Of a stretch of DNA of 41,666 bases, positions 26,588 to 40,346 are shown in pieces (within the stretch, counting starts at the first letter, position 1; every line of letters begins with the position of its first letter). A program made the position numbers and the translations under genes. The DNA is from an uncultured bacterium. Its GTDB lineage: Bacteria; Pseudomonadota; Gammaproteobacteria; Enterobacterales; Pasteurellaceae. The stretch lies in assembly GCA_905215245.1 (NCBI GenBank), contig CAJMPC010000001.1, positions 1 through 41,666 of the forward strand, written 5' to 3'. The notes under the pieces were generated by a model. That model was not told the origin of the DNA, searched no databases, and saw only the letters and a program-made list of their open reading frames with translations.

Positions 26588-29500
26588 ATGAACAAAGTAT
26601 TTAAGATTATTTGGAACAAAACGACACAATCTTTTGTCGTGACATCAGAATTAGCGAAAGGGGCAGTAAAAGCCTCTTCAAACTCAGAACAACGTGTAAC
26701 AAGCGAAACACGTTTATCTTCTCTTTTCAAACTTTCAGCATTTGCACTTTCTTTGTCTGCTGTGATGATGCCGGCACAGGCTGTAGATTTAAGTACTCCT
26801 CTTATTAAAATTACGGCTGGAAGAAGTGGTAATATGTTTACTGGTGAAGCATCTGGTGGTGGCGGTTCTAATATTGCGATAGGTAATGAGGCAACAGTTG
26901 CAAATCAAAATGCTTTTGGAAGAAATATAGCTATTGGTTCAGGAGCTTATATATCTGGAGCATATAGCGAAGAATCTATTGCAATAGGTAGTACAGGAAA
27001 AGGCCCTCAAACTCAACGAACAGAAGTGAGAGGCGATCAATCTATTGCTATTGGTGGAAATACTTTGGCTCAAGGTAATTCATCTATTGCAATTGGTAAT
27101 GATGATCTTAATAAAGTCGGTGCCTCAACTTATACAGGGGCAGAAAAGTTTATTCAATATGATAAGAGTGGTAATAAGACAGGCGAATATATTCTAAATG
27201 GAAACGCTTTAAGAAATATCTATAAAGAGATGACTGGTGATACGATGAACCATGGGGCGTACACAAGCACAACTTCGGGAGAGGGGGCTGTTGCTATAGG
27301 TGTGCAAGCATATTCTCCAGCAGCGTTATCATTAGCGATAGGTACGAAAGCTAATGCATCTGTTTTTGGGGCGACAGCTCTTGGTACAGGGGCAAAAGCA
27401 GATAAATTAAACTCAGTTGCATTAGGTACTGCTTCAGTTATATCTAAGGCTGGTAAGGCTTATGTTGAAAGAACTATCTTAGGTACAAAATATACTTGGG
27501 CGGGCGGTGCACAAGTAGATGAAGGTGATGTGGTTTCTATCGGTAACGTAGGCTATGAACGTCAAATTATTAACCTTGCACCTGGTGATATTTCTGCAAC
27601 ATCTACTGATGCAATCAATGGTTCTCAGCTTTACGCTGCGATGGCTGAAATTGAAAAAATCCGTTATTTTTCGGTTAATTCGACTGTTGAAGGGAACAAA
27701 AATAATAATGGTGCAACGGCAGTTAATTCTATTGCAATTGGTCCTGATGCAAAATCAAGTGCAGTTAATGGCGTTTCATTAGGTAATAATGCAACCAGTA
27801 ATTATTCAAACTCTACAGCGATAGGTTTTGCGACTCATGCGGATGGCGGTAATGCTACGGCTGTTGGTACAAATGCTAAAGCTGTTACCAACTCGACAGC
27901 GCTAGGTTCTAATACAGATGCGAAAGAGTTAGGTGTGGCTATCGGTCATACTGCCTCTTCTGCTTATGCAGGCGTTGCTACAGGGGCAAATGCAAATGTT
28001 AGTGGTATTTATGGTATTGCTGTAGGTAATAATGCTAATGCTTCTGCACAAGCATCTATTGCTATCGGTAAAGGTGCAGTAGGTACAGCAGCTGATGGTG
28101 TAGCGATTGGTTCATCAGCTAATGCAACGGTACAAAATTCAGTTGCACTAGGTAAAGATAGTGTTGCAGGTGGCAATGTTTTCGGTGGAGCTGCCCATGA
28201 AGCCGCTTTCAAAAATGATACTGGCGTGAGTGAAAATAAACAGTTTAAAGCAGGTTTAGCTAATAATTCGCTTGGTGCTGTTTCAGTTGGTAAAGAAGGT
28301 TTTGAACGTCAAATTCAAAATGTAGGTGCGGGCCGTGTTACTGCAAACTCTACTGATGCAATCAACGGTTCACAGCTTTATGCCGTATTAACTTATAGTG
28401 GCTTTAACGTACAACAAAATGGTACTGATAAATCACGTATTAATAACAACGGTTTTGTGAACTTTAAAGATGGTAATTTAACCACTGTAAATGTAACTGA
28501 TGCGGATAATGGCACCATTGTGAAATTTGATGTGAATACAACAAATTTCACGACTGATGCAGCAGGCAATGTAACTGCAGCGAATCCAAATAATATTGCT
28601 ACAGCAGGCGATGTCACTGACGCAATTAATAAAGTGCGTAACATGCCAATTACTTTCACGGGTAATACCGGAAGTGCGGTCAAAAAATTAGGTGAATCTT
28701 TAGGCATTGTAGGTGATGGTACCGATATTACAAGTACAGCCGATGCAAACAATGTGACATTTAAGTTAAATAAATCAACAGCCGTTACAGCAGGGGATAA
28801 TAAGGCTGTAACCAGTGGGGCAGTTGATACCGCCATTAAAGCCATCAACTTGATTACAGCAGGTAATACAGGGGCTGGCGCGGTTAATCTCGCAACACAA
28901 TCTTTAAATATCACAGGTTCAAATGGTTTAACTACCGTAGCCAAAGATAATGGCATTGAAGTGAAAATTGATGATGAAACCCGTAAGAAAATTGATGCTG
29001 CAAGTTCGGCAAAAGAGGTTTCAGCTTCGGTTTCTGGTTCATCTGCAGTTTCTGTCACACCAAATGGCACAACAAAAAATGCTGATGGTGTAGAAGTGAC
29101 AGATTATGCGGTGGATCTTTCTCAAGCAACCAAAGATGATATTCAAAAAGGTGTTGATGCGAATACTACCGTTAACACTAAAGGCTTAACGTTTACTGGT
29201 GATACTAAAGAGTCTGATGTTAAGAAATTAGGAGATAAAGTCGCTATTACTGGTGATGATAATATTACCACTGAAGCGAATCCTAATGGTGTTCAAGTTA
29301 AGTTAAACAAAGATCTTAAAGTTGATAGCGTCAAGGCCGGTGATACAACCATTAATAACGATGGTTTAACTGTTAACGGTGGACCAAGTGTAACTAAATC
29401 AGGTATTAATGCAGGTGACAAAAAAATCACAGGCGTTGCAGCAGGTACCGATGACACTGATGCAGTGAATGTTTCACAATTGAAAGAAGTGAAAGAGATT

Positions 29501-31813
29501 GCTAACAAAGGTTGGAATCTATCAGTAAATACCGGTGAAAATAAATCTAATATCGCACCAGATGCGACAGTCGATTTAAGAAGTGCCAATGACAACATTC
29601 AAATCACTAAAGATGGCAATAATGTAACATTTAAGTTAAATGACACGATTAATGTGACTAATGTTAATGCTACAGGTAATGTAACAGCAGGTGATACAAC
29701 CATTAATAACGATGGTTTGACGATTACTGGTGGCCCAAGTGTGACTAAATCAGGTATTGATGCTGCAGGTAACAAAATTAGCAACGTGGCAGACGGTAAT
29801 GTAGCACCGGATAGCAAAGAAGCTGTGAACGGTAGTCAATTATATTCATTAGGCGATACAATCAATAAGAAAATTGATGGTATGGGCTTCAATTTAACAA
29901 CGAATGGTACTGAGACACCGGCTCTTTCTGACGCAGATAAACGTATTACGAGCAATGAAACATTTGCAATTAATCAAGGTAAAAATATTAAGGTTACCCA
30001 AATTACAAATGGTTATGAAATTGCGACATCAGATAATATGACACTAGGCGAAAAAGCAGAAGATGGAAAACCAGGTACTGATGGATCGTTAGATGTTAAA
30101 GGTAAAGATGGTTCTGCTGTTTCAATTAACGGAAAAGATGGTTCAATCGGTCTAGCGGGTAAAGATGGTGCAAATCCACTTACAATTAAGACCGCAGAGG
30201 GTCCTGCTGGTGTAGATGGTGATGATACAACTAAGAAACCTCGCCTAGATGTAAACGGGGAAAGTGTTGCAACTTTAAATGATGGCTTGAAGTTTACAGG
30301 TAATAATGAAAGTACGGTAAACAAACATAAACTGAATACCTTAGTGAAAATTAAAGGTGAAGGTGTAGCTGAAGCAGAGTCAACAAACTTTAAATCAGCA
30401 GCAGGTAATATCAATGTTAAAGCAGATGGCACTGATACATTAGAAGTTCAGTTAGCTAAAGACTTAAAAGGTTTAAATAGTGCTGAATTTAAAGATGCTA
30501 CAGGTGATGTAACCAAAATCACTCCGGCAGGTGTTGCAGTTAATAAAGCGGATAACTTTAATAAAGATGGTTCAGTTAAAGATCCAAATAAAACTGTGTC
30601 AATCTCTAATGCTGGCGTGAATGCAGGTGGAAACAAAGTCACTAATGTTGCCGATGGTGATGTGAATGCAGATAGCAAAGATGCAATAAACGGTAGCCAA
30701 CTTTATAATGCTGTAGCGACCACTAATTTAACACCTAATTCAACAGGAAAAATTGATGCACCTGTAGACGGCTCTAAATTGGTGAATGCAACCACAGTTG
30801 CAAATGCAATTAATAATTCTGGTTGGAATGTCACTGTGAATAAAGACGGTGGTGAAGCTGAAGGTGAAACTGTTCAAAAGGTAAGCCCAGGTAATACCGT
30901 GACTTATATCGCAGGACAGAATATCAAAATTAAGCAAGATGGTATGAATTTTACCATTTCAACCACAAAAGACTTGAAAGCTGAAAATGTGACTGCTACA
31001 ACCGTTAATACCACCACAATCAATCTTGGTGAAGGTGATAATTCAACGCCAATTACAGTAGTAAGTGGTAAAGATGCAGCTCCAAATCTTGATGGTAAAA
31101 CACCAAATCGTATGAACTTTGGTGGTGAAACTATCGCAACATTAAGCGATGGCTTAAAATTTGGCGCAAATGTAGGCGATGTTTACGGTGCGAAATTAAA
31201 TAGCCAAATCAATGTGAAAGGCGCAGATAGCAACACAAACTGGAGTGAGTTTGATGGTGGTGATAATGTGATGACAAACATTGATAAGAGCGGTAATGTT
31301 CGTGTAGGTATCAAGAAAAACCTTAAAGTGGAAAGCGTAACGGCAAACAAATTCACTGCGGGTGATACGGTGATGGATGGCAATGGCGTCACCATTAAAA
31401 ATGGTCCAAGTATGACTAAAAATGGTATTGATGCAGGTAATAAACAAATTACCAATGTTGCACCAGGACGCATTGCAGCAGACAGTACTGATGCGGTAAA
31501 TGGCAGCCAATTACACGAAGTAAAAGCTGACATGAATAACAAGATCAACCACTTAAATGGTCAAGTGAACAAGTTAGGTAAACGTGTAAATGCAGGTACT
31601 GCAAGCGCGTTAGCGGCTTCTCAATTACCACAGGCTTACATTCCAGGTAAGAGCATGGTATCTGTGGCAGCGGGTAATTACCAAGGTCAAAATGCAGTGG
31701 CATTAGGTATGTCACGTATTTCAGACAACGGTAAAATCATTATTCGTTTAGCCGGTACTAGCGATACACAAGGTAAAGTGGGTGTAGCAGTTGGTGCGGG
31801 TTACCACTGGTAA
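26588..31813 (+). CDS. Trimeric autotransporter adhesin (YadA/Hia/Hsf/EmaA-type)
   Basis: ESPR signal MNKVFKIIWNKTTQSFVVTSELAK; two blocks of SIAIG head repeats; neck motifs (RQIxNxAxG...DAINGSQL); Trp-ring-like KGWNL/SGWNV; GIN-like repeats; YadA anchor ending GVAVGAGYHW. Confidence 0.96.
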   Translation: MNKVFKIIWNKTTQSFVVTSELAKGAVKASSNSEQRVTSETRLSSLFKLSAFALSLSAVMMPAQAVDLSTPLIKITAGRSGNMFTGEASGGGGSNIAIGNEATVANQNAFGRNIAIGSGAYISGAYSEESIAIGSTGKGPQTQRTEVRGDQSIAIGGNTLAQGNSSIAIGNDDLNKVGASTYTGAEKFIQYDKSGNKTGEYILNGNALRNIYKEMTGDTMNHGAYTSTTSGEGAVAIGVQAYSPAALSLAIGTKANASVFGATALGTGAKADKLNSVALGTASVISKAGKAYVERTILGTKYTWAGGAQVDEGDVVSIGNVGYERQIINLAPGDISATSTDAINGSQLYAAMAEIEKIRYFSVNSTVEGNKNNNGATAVNSIAIGPDAKSSAVNGVSLGNNATSNYSNSTAIGFATHADGGNATAVGTNAKAVTNSTALGSNTDAKELGVAIGHTASSAYAGVATGANANVSGIYGIAVGNNANASAQASIAIGKGAVGTAADGVAIGSSANATVQNSVALGKDSVAGGNVFGGAAHEAAFKNDTGVSENKQFKAGLANNSLGAVSVGKEGFERQIQNVGAGRVTANSTDAINGSQLYAVLTYSGFNVQQNGTDKSRINNNGFVNFKDGNLTTVNVTDADNGTIVKFDVNTTNFTTDAAGNVTAANPNNIATAGDVTDAINKVRNMPITFTGNTGSAVKKLGESLGIVGDGTDITSTADANNVTFKLNKSTAVTAGDNKAVTSGAVDTAIKAINLITAGNTGAGAVNLATQSLNITGSNGLTTVAKDNGIEVKIDDETRKKIDAASSAKEVSASVSGSSAVSVTPNGTTKNADGVEVTDYAVDLSQATKDDIQKGVDANTTVNTKGLTFTGDTKESDVKKLGDKVAITGDDNITTEANPNGVQVKLNKDLKVDSVKAGDTTINNDGLTVNGGPSVTKSGINAGDKKITGVAAGTDDTDAVNVSQLKEVKEIANKGWNLSVNTGENKSNIAPDATVDLRSANDNIQITKDGNNVTFKLNDTINVTNVNATGNVTAGDTTINNDGLTITGGPSVTKSGIDAAGNKISNVADGNVAPDSKEAVNGSQLYSLGDTINKKIDGMGFNLTTNGTETPALSDADKRITSNETFAINQGKNIKVTQITNGYEIATSDNMTLGEKAEDGKPGTDGSLDVKGKDGSAVSINGKDGSIGLAGKDGANPLTIKTAEGPAGVDGDDTTKKPRLDVNGESVATLNDGLKFTGNNESTVNKHKLNTLVKIKGEGVAEAESTNFKSAAGNINVKADGTDTLEVQLAKDLKGLNSAEFKDATGDVTKITPAGVAVNKADNFNKDGSVKDPNKTVSISNAGVNAGGNKVTNVADGDVNADSKDAINGSQLYNAVATTNLTPNSTGKIDAPVDGSKLVNATTVANAINNSGWNVTVNKDGGEAEGETVQKVSPGNTVTYIAGQNIKIKQDGMNFTISTTKDLKAENVTATTVNTTTINLGEGDNSTPITVVSGKDAAPNLDGKTPNRMNFGGETIATLSDGLKFGANVGDVYGAKLNSQINVKGADSNTNWSEFDGGDNVMTNIDKSGNVRVGIKKNLKVESVTANKFTAGDTVMDGNGVTIKNGPSMTKNGIDAGNKQITNVAPGRIAADSTDAVNGSQLHEVKADMNNKINHLNGQVNKLGKRVNAGTASALAASQLPQAYIPGKSMVSVAAGNYQGQNAVALGMSRISDNGKIIIRLAGTSDTQGKVGVAVGAGYHW
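29339..29770 (+). repeat. Internal DNA duplication in the adhesin stalk (copies start at 29339 and 29690)
   Basis: GGTGATACAACCATTAATAACGATGGTTT is identical in both copies and is followed by near-identical CCAAGTGT(A/G)ACTAAATCAGGTATT; a more diverged third copy lies at about 31361-31440. Confidence 0.85.
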
Positions 31814-37704: not shown

Positions 37705-38373
37705 ATGTCAGAAGATGTAGAATTACTTGAAGAACAAAAGTTACAAGACGATGATCAGCAACGCGATCCTGCTCTGGATTGGTTCCTAACGCACTGTCAT
37801 TTGCATAAATATCCTGCAAAATCGACCTTAATCCATGCAGGGGAAGATGCCAATATTTTATATTTCTTAATTAAAGGAAGCGTGATGGTTTCATCGAAAG
37901 ATGATGAAGGCAAAGAGATGATTTTATCTTATTTAGGTGCCGGACAATTTTTTGGTGAAGCAGGTTTATTTGACGAAGGTTCGAAACGTTCTGCTTGGGT
38001 AAAAACGAAAACCCCTTGTGAAATTGCAGAAATTTCCTATAAAAAATATCGTCAGCTTATTCAAATTAATCCTGAGATTTTAATGTTCCTTACCGCTCAG
38101 TTATCAAAACGCTTGCAAAATACATCTCGACAAGTGACTAACTTGGCCTTTTTGGATGTGGCAGGCCGTATTGCTCAGGCGCTTATGCACTTGGCAAAAC
38201 AGCCAGAGGCCATGACTCATCCTGATGGTATGCAGATTAAAATTACACGTCAGGAAATCGGTCAAATGGTGGGCTGTTCACGTGAAACCGTAGGGCGAAT
38301 AATTAAGATGCTGGAAGATCAAAATCTAATTCATGCGCACGGTAAAACCATTGTGGTTTACGGCACTCGATAG
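37705..38373 (+). CDS. crp: cAMP receptor protein
   Basis: cNMP-binding domain (FFGEAGLF...RSAWV) and [22 protein letters not shown]. Confidence 0.98.
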
Positions 38374-38375
38374 TA

Positions 38376-38413
38376 AAAATAACCGTCTTTAATAAGACGG
38401 TTATTTTGTTTTT
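38376..38413 (+). terminator. Terminator of crp
   Basis: AAAATAACCGTCTT-taat-AAGACGGTTATTTT followed by a T-rich tail. Confidence 0.9.
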
Positions 38414-38497: not shown

Positions 38498-38526
38498 TTG
38501 ACAAAATAGCGGAAGACTTCTATCAT
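38498..38526 (+). promoter_or_regulatory. Near-consensus sigma70 promoter with no downstream CDS
   Basis: TTGACA (38498-38503), 17 bp spacer, TATCAT (38521-38526). Confidence 0.8.
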
Positions 38527-38534
38527 ACCACTGC

Positions 38535-38622
38535 CTTCCAATGTAGTTTCTTTGGAAGTCAGGATTGGTCTCCTGAATATATAAGTGGCTTTTAAAAGAT
38601 TCTGAATCTTTTAATTTTATAT
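38535..38622 (+). promoter_or_regulatory. Structured leader with C4-type target sites (a1/b1-like) and an attenuator-like hairpin
   Basis: Hairpin CTTCCAA/TTGGAAG (38535-38558); hairpin TCAGGA-ttggtc-TCCTGA (38559-38576); site AAGTGGCTT (38583-38591); 11-bp inverted repeat TTAAAAGATTC-t-GAATCTTTTAA (38592-38614) followed by TTTT. Confidence 0.65.
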
Positions 38623-38656
38623 CGCAGACTGGAACCCCAGAGATGCTTTAAATCTA

Positions 38657-38737
38657 TGGTGGGCTAGGTAGAAATCCCGCAGGGATGCGATGCAGTAAGC
38701 CACTTGCTGTTAAGACCAATTCTGCTTAGTTCCACCA
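38657..38737 (+). ncRNA. C4/CI-like antisense RNA (81-nt cloverleaf)
   Basis: Manual fold gives a 17-bp outer stem TGGTGGGCTAGGTAGAA / TTCTGCTTAGT(T)CCACCA with G-U pairs and a 1-nt bulge, plus hairpins ATCCC-gca-GGGAT and GCAGTAA-gccac-TTGCTGT. The exposed regions are complementary to two upstream sites, and the RNA ends in CCACCA. Confidence 0.72.
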
Positions 38738-38834
38738 CCCTTCAAAACAATCTTCAATTTTCAAACTTTATTTAACTCACTTCAAACGAGAAATTCTCAG
38801 CTAAAGTGCGGTCATTTTTTACTTTATTTTTGGC

Positions 38835-38868
38835 AAAAAAATACCGACCCATTTCGGAGTCGGTATTT
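38835..38868 (-). terminator. Terminator of nagE (possibly bidirectional)
   Basis: A-run then AAATACCGAC...GTCGGTATTT. Confidence 0.8.
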
Positions 38869-38879
38869 CATTTGGTGTG

Positions 38880-40346
38880 TTATTTCACTTTTTGTTTCAT
38901 GGCTTCTGCCACAAGTTCAGCTTCAGGGCCGAGAACCACTTGTAAGCCATCGTTACCAATTTTCACGATACCTTTTGCACCAAGAGACTTGAGCTGTTCT
39001 TCATTGATTTTGTGTTGATCCACTAAGCTTAAACGTAAGCGAGTGATACAAGCATCAATATTTTTGAAGTTATCAGCACCACCTAAAGCATCAATAAATT
39101 TGACCGCTCTTTCTTCACGAGATTGGCTCGCTGATGGTTGTGCTGCAGTCGTTTCTTCCGTTTCTTCTGTGCGACCTAATGTTTTTAAGTTGAACGCTTT
39201 AATTGCAAAACGGAATACTGCATAGTAAATCACGAAGAATACTAAGCCTTGTACGATTAGCATATACCATTCAACGGCTAATGGGTTGCGTGATGAAAGC
39301 ACCATATCCACGAGACCCGCACTGAAACCGAAGCCTGCGATCCAATGCATTGTTGCGGCGATGAAGACGGAAATACCGGTCAATATCGCGTGGATGAAGT
39401 AAAGCACTGGTGCAACAAACATGAAAGAGAATTCTAATGGCTCGGTGATACCAGTGAAGAATGAGGCGAACGCACCAGCAAGCATGATTGATGCCACTTT
39501 AGTTCTTTGACTTGGTTTAGCGCTGAGATAAATCGCTAATGCGGCACCTGGTAAACCGAACATCATGACAGGGAAGAAACCGGCTTGGTACATACCCGTT
39601 ACACCAACCGTTGCAGTGCCTTCAGCAAGTGATTTCGCACCACCTAAGAAGTTTGGAATGTCATTGATGCCCGCTACGTCAAACCAGAATACAGAGTTCA
39701 ATGCATGGTGTAAGCCAACAGGAATGAGTAAACGGTTGAAGAAACCGTAAAGACCTGCACCAACAGCGCCTAAGTCTTTAATGCTTTCACCAAATGACAC
39801 TAAACCGCCGAAAATATATGGCCAGATATAGAGCAATACGAAGCTGAGAAGCATCATGACAAAAGACACAACAATCGGCACGAGACGTTTTCCGCTAAAG
39901 AAGGAGAGTGCTTTAGGCAACTCCACTTGATAGAAGCGGTTATAAAGTTCAGCCGAAATCACCCCGATCAAAATCCCAATAAATTGGTTATTGATTTTCC
40001 CGAAAGCGGCGGGCACTTCACTTACATCGATATGTTGTAACTGAGCAACACTACCAGGTGAAAGTAGAGTTGTTACCACATAGTAACCCACTAAACCTGA
40101 AAGTGCAGCAGAACCATGTTTGTCCTTAGATAAACCGAAAGCAACGCCAACGGCAAAAAGCAGGCCCATGTTATCGATGATAGCACCGCCCGATTTAATT
40201 AAAAATGCAGCAAGTTGACTGTTAGCTCCCCAGCCATCTGGGTCAAGCCAATAACCAATACCCATCAGTACAGCCGCTGCTGGTAAGACAGCAACAGGTA
40301 CCATTAAGGCTTGCCCAATTTTTTGCGCATAACCTAACACATTCAT
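38880..40346 (-). CDS. nagE: PTS N-acetylglucosamine-type transporter, EIICB (no EIIA domain)
   Basis: QKIGQALMVPVAVLPAAA, GLHHALNSVFWFDVAGINDI, TGITEPLEFSF and the EIIB phosphorylation motif DACITRLR. Confidence 0.9.
   Translation of the reverse strand: MNVLGYAQKIGQALMVPVAVLPAAAVLMGIGYWLDPDGWGANSQLAAFLIKSGGAIIDNMGLLFAVGVAFGLSKDKHGSAALSGLVGYYVVTTLLSPGSVAQLQHIDVSEVPAAFGKINNQFIGILIGVISAELYNRFYQVELPKALSFFSGKRLVPIVVSFVMMLLSFVLLYIWPYIFGGLVSFGESIKDLGAVGAGLYGFFNRLLIPVGLHHALNSVFWFDVAGINDIPNFLGGAKSLAEGTATVGVTGMYQAGFFPVMMFGLPGAALAIYLSAKPSQRTKVASIMLAGAFASFFTGITEPLEFSFMFVAPVLYFIHAILTGISVFIAATMHWIAGFGFSAGLVDMVLSSRNPLAVEWYMLIVQGLVFFVIYYAVFRFAIKAFNLKTLGRTEETEETTAAQPSASQSREERAVKFIDALGGADNFKNIDACITRLRLSLVDQHKINEEQLKSLGAKGIVKIGNDGLQVVLGPEAELVAEAMKQKVK

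Follow-up and report, generated by a model that had tools for sequence, protein, structure and literature searches.

The crp-nagE gap and its RNA cassette

The window, i.e. the whole stretch of 41,666 nucleotides that was analysed, contains the gene order slmA, a UPF0270 gene, crp (37705-38373), a gap of 500 bp and the convergent N-acetylglucosamine PTS gene nagE (38880-40346). The gap holds the terminator of crp, a promoter (38498-38526) and a structured stretch (38657-38737). The features are the following, with the evidence for each in parentheses:

38376..38407, + strand: intrinsic terminator of crp, separating the cassette from crp (14-bp stem and T run)
38498..38526, + strand: sigma-70-type promoter, -35 TTGACA, -10 TATCAT (consensus scan and conservation in 25 copies)
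38533..38620, + strand: IsrK/SeqA-like leader consisting of a 5' hairpin, the b1 hairpin, a1, an AU-rich hairpin and a T-rich run, with its 5' end placed at 38533 from the -10 box (below-cut-off isrK match, predicted fold, starts of RNA-library contigs)
38560..38575, + strand: b1 hairpin CAGG-ATTGGTCT-CCTG, target of b' (identity between copies and pairing with b')
38583..38591, + strand: a1 target word AAGTGGCTT (pairs with a'; AAGCGG in accA-linked copies, where it changed together with the loop)
38657..38737, + strand: body of the C4-type RNA, whose mature form is predicted to be about 80 nt long (fold, Rfam C4 match below cut-off, stem pairing, clade)
38697..38705, + strand: antisense word a', located in the loop arm; its core is CCACTT, or CCGCTT in Aggregatibacter (alignment and predicted fold)
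38713..38720, + strand: b' antisense word AGACCAAT in a single-stranded junction (invariant in 25/25 distinct copies, mostly unpaired in the prediction)
38839..38868, unstranded: likely terminator of nagE, a hairpin that lies past the cassette and before the nagE 3' end, outside the conserved cassette

The genes flanking the C4-type RNA are housekeeping genes, with no phage, prophage or satellite context, and a blastn comparison of the cassette with 50,697 phage records yielded no meaningful match, only four chance matches. From 38804-38812 onward, AAGTGCGGT and the flanking AT-rich bases have dozens of short matches in genome G000 and its relatives; the word at 38804-38812 presumably resembles the Haemophilus DNA uptake signal. 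Elsewhere the window has an ORF of 1741 aa (26588-31813), together with several long opposite-strand ORFs.

A sequence-only reading of this DNA had proposed a TTGACA-17-TATCAT promoter behind the crp terminator. It was found at 38498-38526, agrees with the consensus at 11 of 12 positions and is the sole promoter-like match between 38200 and 39400. The scan alone proves little, because shuffled sequence gives 2.6 matches. Both hexamers are, however, kept in 25 distinct copies (TTGACA and the T, A, T and T of the -10 box are invariant or nearly so), whereas the spacer is variable, only 5-9 of its 17 bases being identical between genera. In the leader, the Rfam isrK model (RF01394) matches 38546-38617 with 27.3 bits (E 6e-4), which is below the cut-off of 50 bits. 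The b1 word (38564-38571) sits, as had been proposed, in a predicted CAGG...CCTG hairpin, followed by a1 and by a third hairpin, which is AU-rich, poorly conserved in sequence and not called as a terminator. The claim that about 350 bp lack a + strand ORF did not hold to the letter, as there are short ORFs of 23 aa (at 38704) and 70 aa (at 38806), but none of them is conserved in 10 copies. As the frames that run through the cassette are not the same in different genera, no peptide is kept.

The cloverleaf that had been drawn for the body was reproduced in part. The stretch 38657-38745 is predicted to fold with -35.2 kcal/mol (z = -4.22; none of 200 shuffles was as good) and to form the 17-bp outer stem, with one bulge, whereas just two pairs of the first inner hairpin are invariant. 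The 3' CCACCA, previously taken for a tRNA-like end, is paired within the outer stem of the predicted fold and leaves no free tail; no tRNA was called in the cassette by ARAGORN or Rfam. A GGT at 38658 is like the start described in the accessible part of PMC5320573. The a' word is not exposed as had been thought: in the predicted fold only its CCA is unpaired, and sequence variation suggests a loop of 5-7 nt. Compared with the arms of C4 RNAs of mobile elements, the arm carrying a' is longer in the stem and smaller in the loop.

Both antisense pairs are present, a1 with a' (38583-38591 with 38697-38705, 9/9) and b1 with b' (38564-38571 with 38713-38720, 8/8). The two together arose in 4 of 200,000 base-shuffled leaders, with query windows that were picked after the match had been seen. 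The Rfam search gave no gathering-level match in the window; C4 (RF01695) matched over its full length (model positions 1-87) with 35.1 bits (E 5e-5), the gathering cut-off being 45 bits. Three other host copies, i.e. copies outside mobile elements, scored 34.0-37.9 bits and four more had no match at E 0.05. The two-site layout of C4/CI RNAs, with an outer stem, a' and b' complementary to upstream a1 and b1, and an isrK-like leader, is nevertheless there. The cassette is real and conserved; in cis it works like a C4/CI RNA, but its score, its lack of downstream targets and its location set it apart from the known members.

One study has two RNA libraries in which the cassette formed a contig of its own, 38546-38751 (depth 33) and 38546-38768 (depth 30); in the same libraries the contigs at the nagE end had depths of 3-4 and crp was uncovered, contig depth being a poor measure. 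A third run, RNA by guess, has a contig that begins at 38547. The RNA contigs run through leader and body together. In run X15 the leader was uncovered, and in run X10 genes and cassette were covered alike, therefore these two runs do not support separate transcription. The RNA-library contigs are a weak hint that the cassette is transcribed separately, and its RNA is probably expressed. Record 4 of run X10, labelled bat metagenome, is a contig with Aggregatibacter-type flanks around a C4 body.

Distribution, conservation and origin

A DNA search of 236 Pasteurellaceae genomes gave matches in 101. Among the 100 matches listed, 97 of the 236 genomes were carriers with one full or contig-cut copy each: 54/56 in group g1 (both misses are genomes 64% complete), 20/20 in g46, 12/12 in g29 and 11/14 in g68. 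The three remaining listed matches were short and fell in leaders of mobile elements (G131, G213, G241). From the shared neighbour and words we infer that g1 is the H. parainfluenzae group, g46 H. influenzae/haemolyticus, g68 Rodentibacter and g29 Aggregatibacter. When the leader pattern was run over 185,579 species genomes, it gave 74 matches, all with titles naming Haemophilus, Aggregatibacter, Rodentibacter, Pasteurellaceae or an uncultured bacterium. Of these 74 named loci 65 lie behind crp and carry AGTGG/CCACTT, 8 (Aggregatibacter) are divergent from accA and carry AGCGG/CCGCTT, and 1 is unplaced. The upstream gene is crp in 6/6 g1, 20/20 g46 and 10/11 g68 loci and accA in 12/12 g29 loci, whereas the downstream neighbour varies (nagE, glmU, rlmC, dcu, malic enzyme, folD, narQ, guaA). 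That downstream targets and a regulated gene are missing was confirmed: within 150 nt 3' of the body both words occur in none of the 74 loci (1 b-like and 3 a-like hexamers were seen, and 1 locus stops short of the body).

We searched a draw of 151 genomes with a model made from 25 distinct host bodies: matches reached 100-115 bits in 29 of the 30 genomes that belong to the four genera, and no match outside them exceeded 59 bits. Twelve lower-scoring matches were fetched, and those that could be parsed were mobile modules. In a tree of 90 columns with a rough bootstrap, the 25 host bodies lie on one side of a branch and 26 mobile bodies on the other (100/100); a long branch (0.68) leads to the host clade, and those after it are very short. 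The body is 93-100% identical between genera, compared with 29-38% at four-fold sites of crp, and the b1 hairpin has the same 17/17 bases in all 9 crp-linked copies compared. In the 25 bodies 574 of 575 stem cells are paired, two pairs beside a misplaced gap left out. Of the 23 stem pairs, 16 never vary, 6 vary on one side and none on both, so that covariation gives limited support to the stems. Pairing between leader and body is kept in 96.5% of the cells (b1/b' in 199/200); 6 g46 rows have an unpaired first a1 position, 6 g29 rows an unpaired last one. In 6 of the 25 rows, of Aggregatibacter type, leader and loop have a compensatory change from U-A to C-G, which is probably one event.

The sequence-only reading had suggested a domesticated RNA, and these results bear it out: there is a single copy in a single clade, strongly conserved and with a compensatory change in leader and loop. 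For the same reasons a decaying prophage remnant is untenable. Loss or decay of the cassette in 3/14 g68 genomes and the failure to find a target (see below) would fit neutrality, but the excess of body identity over the four-fold sites, the almost complete stem pairing, the compensatory change, promoter boxes that are kept while their spacer drifts, and the intact cassettes at two other locations make it very improbable indeed. Of the signs by which a remnant was to be recognized, decay of stems and of loop/target complementarity across strains was not seen; the C4 score does lie below gathering.

Frozen stems could also mean that the RNA is a structure bound by a protein (e.g. RNase P, a nuclease or a toxin, for which it might be a decoy or a ligand), with the leader pairing merely setting its level. 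The 16 invariant pairs and the lack of two-sided changes, the longer stem and smaller loop than in mobile C4s, and the long branch followed by very short ones are in line with it. No partner protein is linked to the cassette, however, the neighbours vary, and low variation may reflect just strong constraint on a short RNA; we regard this explanation as distinctly doubtful.

G236 and G238 have no cassette behind crp. In G241 a decayed one (L543) directly follows crp; its -35 box is altered, a1 is degenerate and the C4 body is deleted, and the b1 hairpin is intact. Retention of this hairpin after loss of the body, and its invariance elsewhere, would be expected if the short IsrK-like leader RNA were the effector and the C4 body merely set the amount made; according to the accessible text of PMC4825925, IsrK of Gifsy-1 acts in trans in Salmonella, switching on anrP. 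Outside b1 and a1, however, the leader has diverged strongly, compared with 93% identity per column in the body, and the RNA contigs cover leader and body together, making an effector role of the leader improbable.

Mobile modules and candidate targets

Rfam C4 matches above the cut-off were found in 105 of 151 genomes of the family (234 matches, up to 27 in one genome, G197). From the 150 listed of the 234 matches 99 distinct modules were parsed, a number that includes 3 added from the search with the host leader. The order in the mobile modules is promoter, b1, a1, terminator, C4, b2, a2, ATG. Both downstream words (at least 6 nt, as found by the parser) are present in 87 of the 99, and in most of them a2 lies 6-10 nt before the ATG. 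Five module genes that were tested encode AntA, KilA-N or Bro-N proteins, and a similar region of Mannheimia phage vB_MhS_587AP2 is annotated with promoter, terminator and antirepressor. The words are hypervariable, with 67 a2 cores and many b words among the 99 modules. Judged by these sequences, the C4 modules of Pasteurellaceae mobile elements would form a combinatorial code in which a2 usually doubles as the ribosome-binding region. The shared order and the hypervariable words of the mobile modules thus identify the host copy as the 5' half of such a module, its words having become frozen.

Several mobile modules have features of their own. In L530-L532 the loop arm begins with GCAGTAAG and ends with CTGT like the host arm, the b word is ATTGGCGT, and a1 and a2 differ in one base, which G-U pairing could tolerate; these modules are a possible donor of the host arm. 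The prophage module L107 (G213) has lost the 3' half of C4, b2 and a2, and its remains are fused into the antirepressor coding region. Its leader sequence AAGTGGCT was considered as a target and rejected, as it lies in a terminator stem and a1 is a different word. Rfam AaHKsRNA82 matches the terminator part of the L106 and L107 leaders, beside isrK matches. In Table S5 of PMC5909427, an article accessible in part, this RNA is listed with isrK similarity, and it is probably the leader of such a mobile module.

It had been proposed that the RNA may confer immunity against phages or satellites with matching target words, which could be searched for in Pasteurellaceae prophages. In this search none of the 99 modules matched the CCACUU variant with both words, and none has CCACTT or CCGCTT in its loop. 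Modules matching both host words do exist among viral sequences, where 36 of 50 loci belong to the class with b = ATTGGTCT and a = CTAAGTGG; the predicted duplexes are -9.0 to -9.8 kcal/mol at a2 and -11.2 to -11.3 kcal/mol at b2. At least 80% of the length of one such module is matched in 82 of 5426 E. coli genomes, and the eight matches listed are all at 'phage antirepressor Ant'. Full matches to the CCACUU variant look enterobacterial. The Pasteurellaceae module L533 (G197), with a = AAAAGCGG, fits the Aggregatibacter variant. A Pasteurellaceae-type module with the word AAGTGG was not found in the scans: Pasteurellaceae-type b2 combined with AAGYGG gave 2 viral and 17 metagenome contig matches, none of them a module, and the host loop pattern gave 10 matches in viral contigs, none of them a C4. 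In the viral locus L292 there is a host cassette of Aggregatibacter type that lacks b2 and a2; we take it to be a chromosomal flank.

Modules with the host b word are distributed unevenly. They occur in 0/97 carriers and in 8/139 non-carriers (G071, G125, G131, G197, G208, G213 with a broken body, G233 and G241), whereas siblings with a different b word are as common in carriers (12/97) as in non-carriers (18/139). Of the 10 genomes matched by one pattern, G111, G195 and G245 had been removed as non-modules; a second match in G213, from another pattern, had been removed as chance because of its sequence. G241 is the only genome of the four genera with a host-b-word module (L105), and its own cassette is decayed (see above). 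Naive one-sided Fisher tests give p = 0.013 (8/139 and 0/97), 0.032 (conditional, for the union of patterns) and 0.24 (for one pattern), with kin that are non-independent throughout. The exclusion of host-b-word modules from carriers is a weak signal, no more than suggestive.

The alternative that the mature RNA is a co-opted host regulator, using a' and/or b' to pair with at least one core mRNA while the leader loop steadies its level, was approached through the start regions of genes. In G000, one genome with crude gene starts, both seeds occur in 2 of 1665 predicted start regions. The top duplex, at the nagZ end and rlmC start, follows Trp-Ser and Trp-Leu codons and is unconserved: its a site is absent in 20/20 g46, 5/5 g29 and 8/8 g68 loci and present in a non-carrier. 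The two-word site in an MFS transporter gene (15047) is an amino-acid motif that 6 homologues have not retained; a search of 8 carriers did not find the gene in 4. The suggested regulation of host genes thus lost both of its G000 candidates on conservation. A core-gene-like distribution, frozen sequence, a b' word invariant in 25/25 copies though mobile b words vary freely, and the contig depths in two RNA libraries (30-33, with 3-4 at the nagE end; a poor measure, see above) speak for such a regulator, and in its accessible part PMC5320573 proposes the same idea for Acinetobacter C4-like sRNAs. We consider a host regulator possible, though rather unlikely.

Proposed mode of action and known systems

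The observations show the layout of the cassette, that its regulated gene is gone, that it arose once, that purifying selection on it is strong and that the pairing of leader and RNA has been kept. An ancestor of Haemophilus, Rodentibacter and Aggregatibacter would have taken in part of a phage module for antirepressor control, its 5' half with promoter, b1/a1 leader and C4 RNA, and the captured module would have lost b2, a2 and the antirepressor gene. By analogy with P1 C4 and P4 CI, for which processing and feedback are modelled on the accessible parts of PMC5320573, PMC4825925 and PMC12197685, the promoter would produce a precursor of about 210 nt, from which RNase P and 3' trimming would free a stable RNA of about 80 nt. 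This RNA would pair back on b1 and a1 of new transcripts and so limit its own synthesis. Because feedback alone brings no benefit, the product must act elsewhere, and the carrier bacteria appear to use the RNA for a job of their own.

Our tentative preference, held with somewhat less than even confidence, is that the host RNA may act on b-matching antirepressor leaders of mobile elements. The targets could be the leaders of modules, newly arriving or already resident, in which the b word is ATTGGTCT as well; modules that also have a matching a word would be silenced, others would have their own C4 control jammed, and elements sharing the b word would thus fail to settle in carriers. The existence of modules matching both words and, weakly, the absence of host-b-word modules from carriers support this reading. 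Against it, near-fixation and frozen stems are unusual for defence genes, and a frozen word covers little, since there are 67 a2 words and none of the 99 modules has CCACTT or CCGCTT. A difference of 4 nt in a' is said, in the accessible text of PMC5320573, to restrict the specificity of P1 and P7, so that action through b only is at most a candidate mechanism. In a narrower form, the host RNA or leader would be a jammer that occupies the b site common to a whole class of antirepressor switches of phages and satellites, whatever the a word, uncoupling them from their own C4 control and barring stable lysogeny. We consider this form unlikely; if true, it would be a protein-free, vertically inherited anti-phage system made from the phages' own immunity RNA.

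Whatever its targets, the cassette is a clear example of a chromosomal gene that began as a regulatory RNA of a phage. It can be expected to be among the most sequence-conserved intergenic elements of H. influenzae, H. parainfluenzae and A. actinomycetemcomitans, but its score stays under the Rfam cut-off. With known seeds and a natural compensatory variant, the targets of a co-opted C4, phage or host mRNA, are directly testable in a genetically tractable species. No description of this element was found in the literature, subscription journals lying outside the search. Two host strings were absent from the alignment file of PMC2864571, whose gaps could hide them. The numbered sRNAs of about 200 nt of A. 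actinomycetemcomitans in the accessible part of PMC5909427 might include the Aggregatibacter copy.

With the C4 of P1 and P7 (RF01695, immI) the host RNA shares the long outer stem, two inner hairpins, a' and b' words, upstream a1 and b1 targets in the same transcript, and ATGG...CCACC ends. In contrast to it, the host copy is below the gathering score, has no b2/a2 and no icd/ant, carries a smaller a' loop on a longer stem, and is chromosomal and single-copy with fixed, not hypervariable, words. P4 CI (seqA/seqC) and Gifsy-1 IsrK-STnc1160-anrP, the latter as described in the accessible part of PMC4825925, likewise have an IsrK/SeqA-like leader upstream of a complementary processed antisense RNA, but the host cassette lacks an equivalent of seqC, a conserved orf45/kil-like peptide and an antirepressor, and lies outside a prophage.

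The antirepressor modules with b = ATTGGTCT of Pasteurellaceae and E. coli prophages (L304, L319, L533) have the same order of promoter, leader and C4 and the same b word; L319 has the 7-nt loop word GCCACTT in common with the host, and L533 fits the Aggregatibacter loop. They differ in having retained b2, a2 and the gene, in scoring at most 59 bits on the host model compared with 100-115, and in falling outside the host clade. The Group 1 C4-like sRNAs of A. baumannii are, according to the accessible part of PMC5320573, also C4-like RNAs, expressed from a bacterial genome, processed from longer transcripts and proposed to be co-opted. They have many copies and variable a' words, and in that part of the article the authors were unable to affirm that individual elements are conserved, whereas the host cassette is one orthologous copy with a fixed word, kept in four genera.
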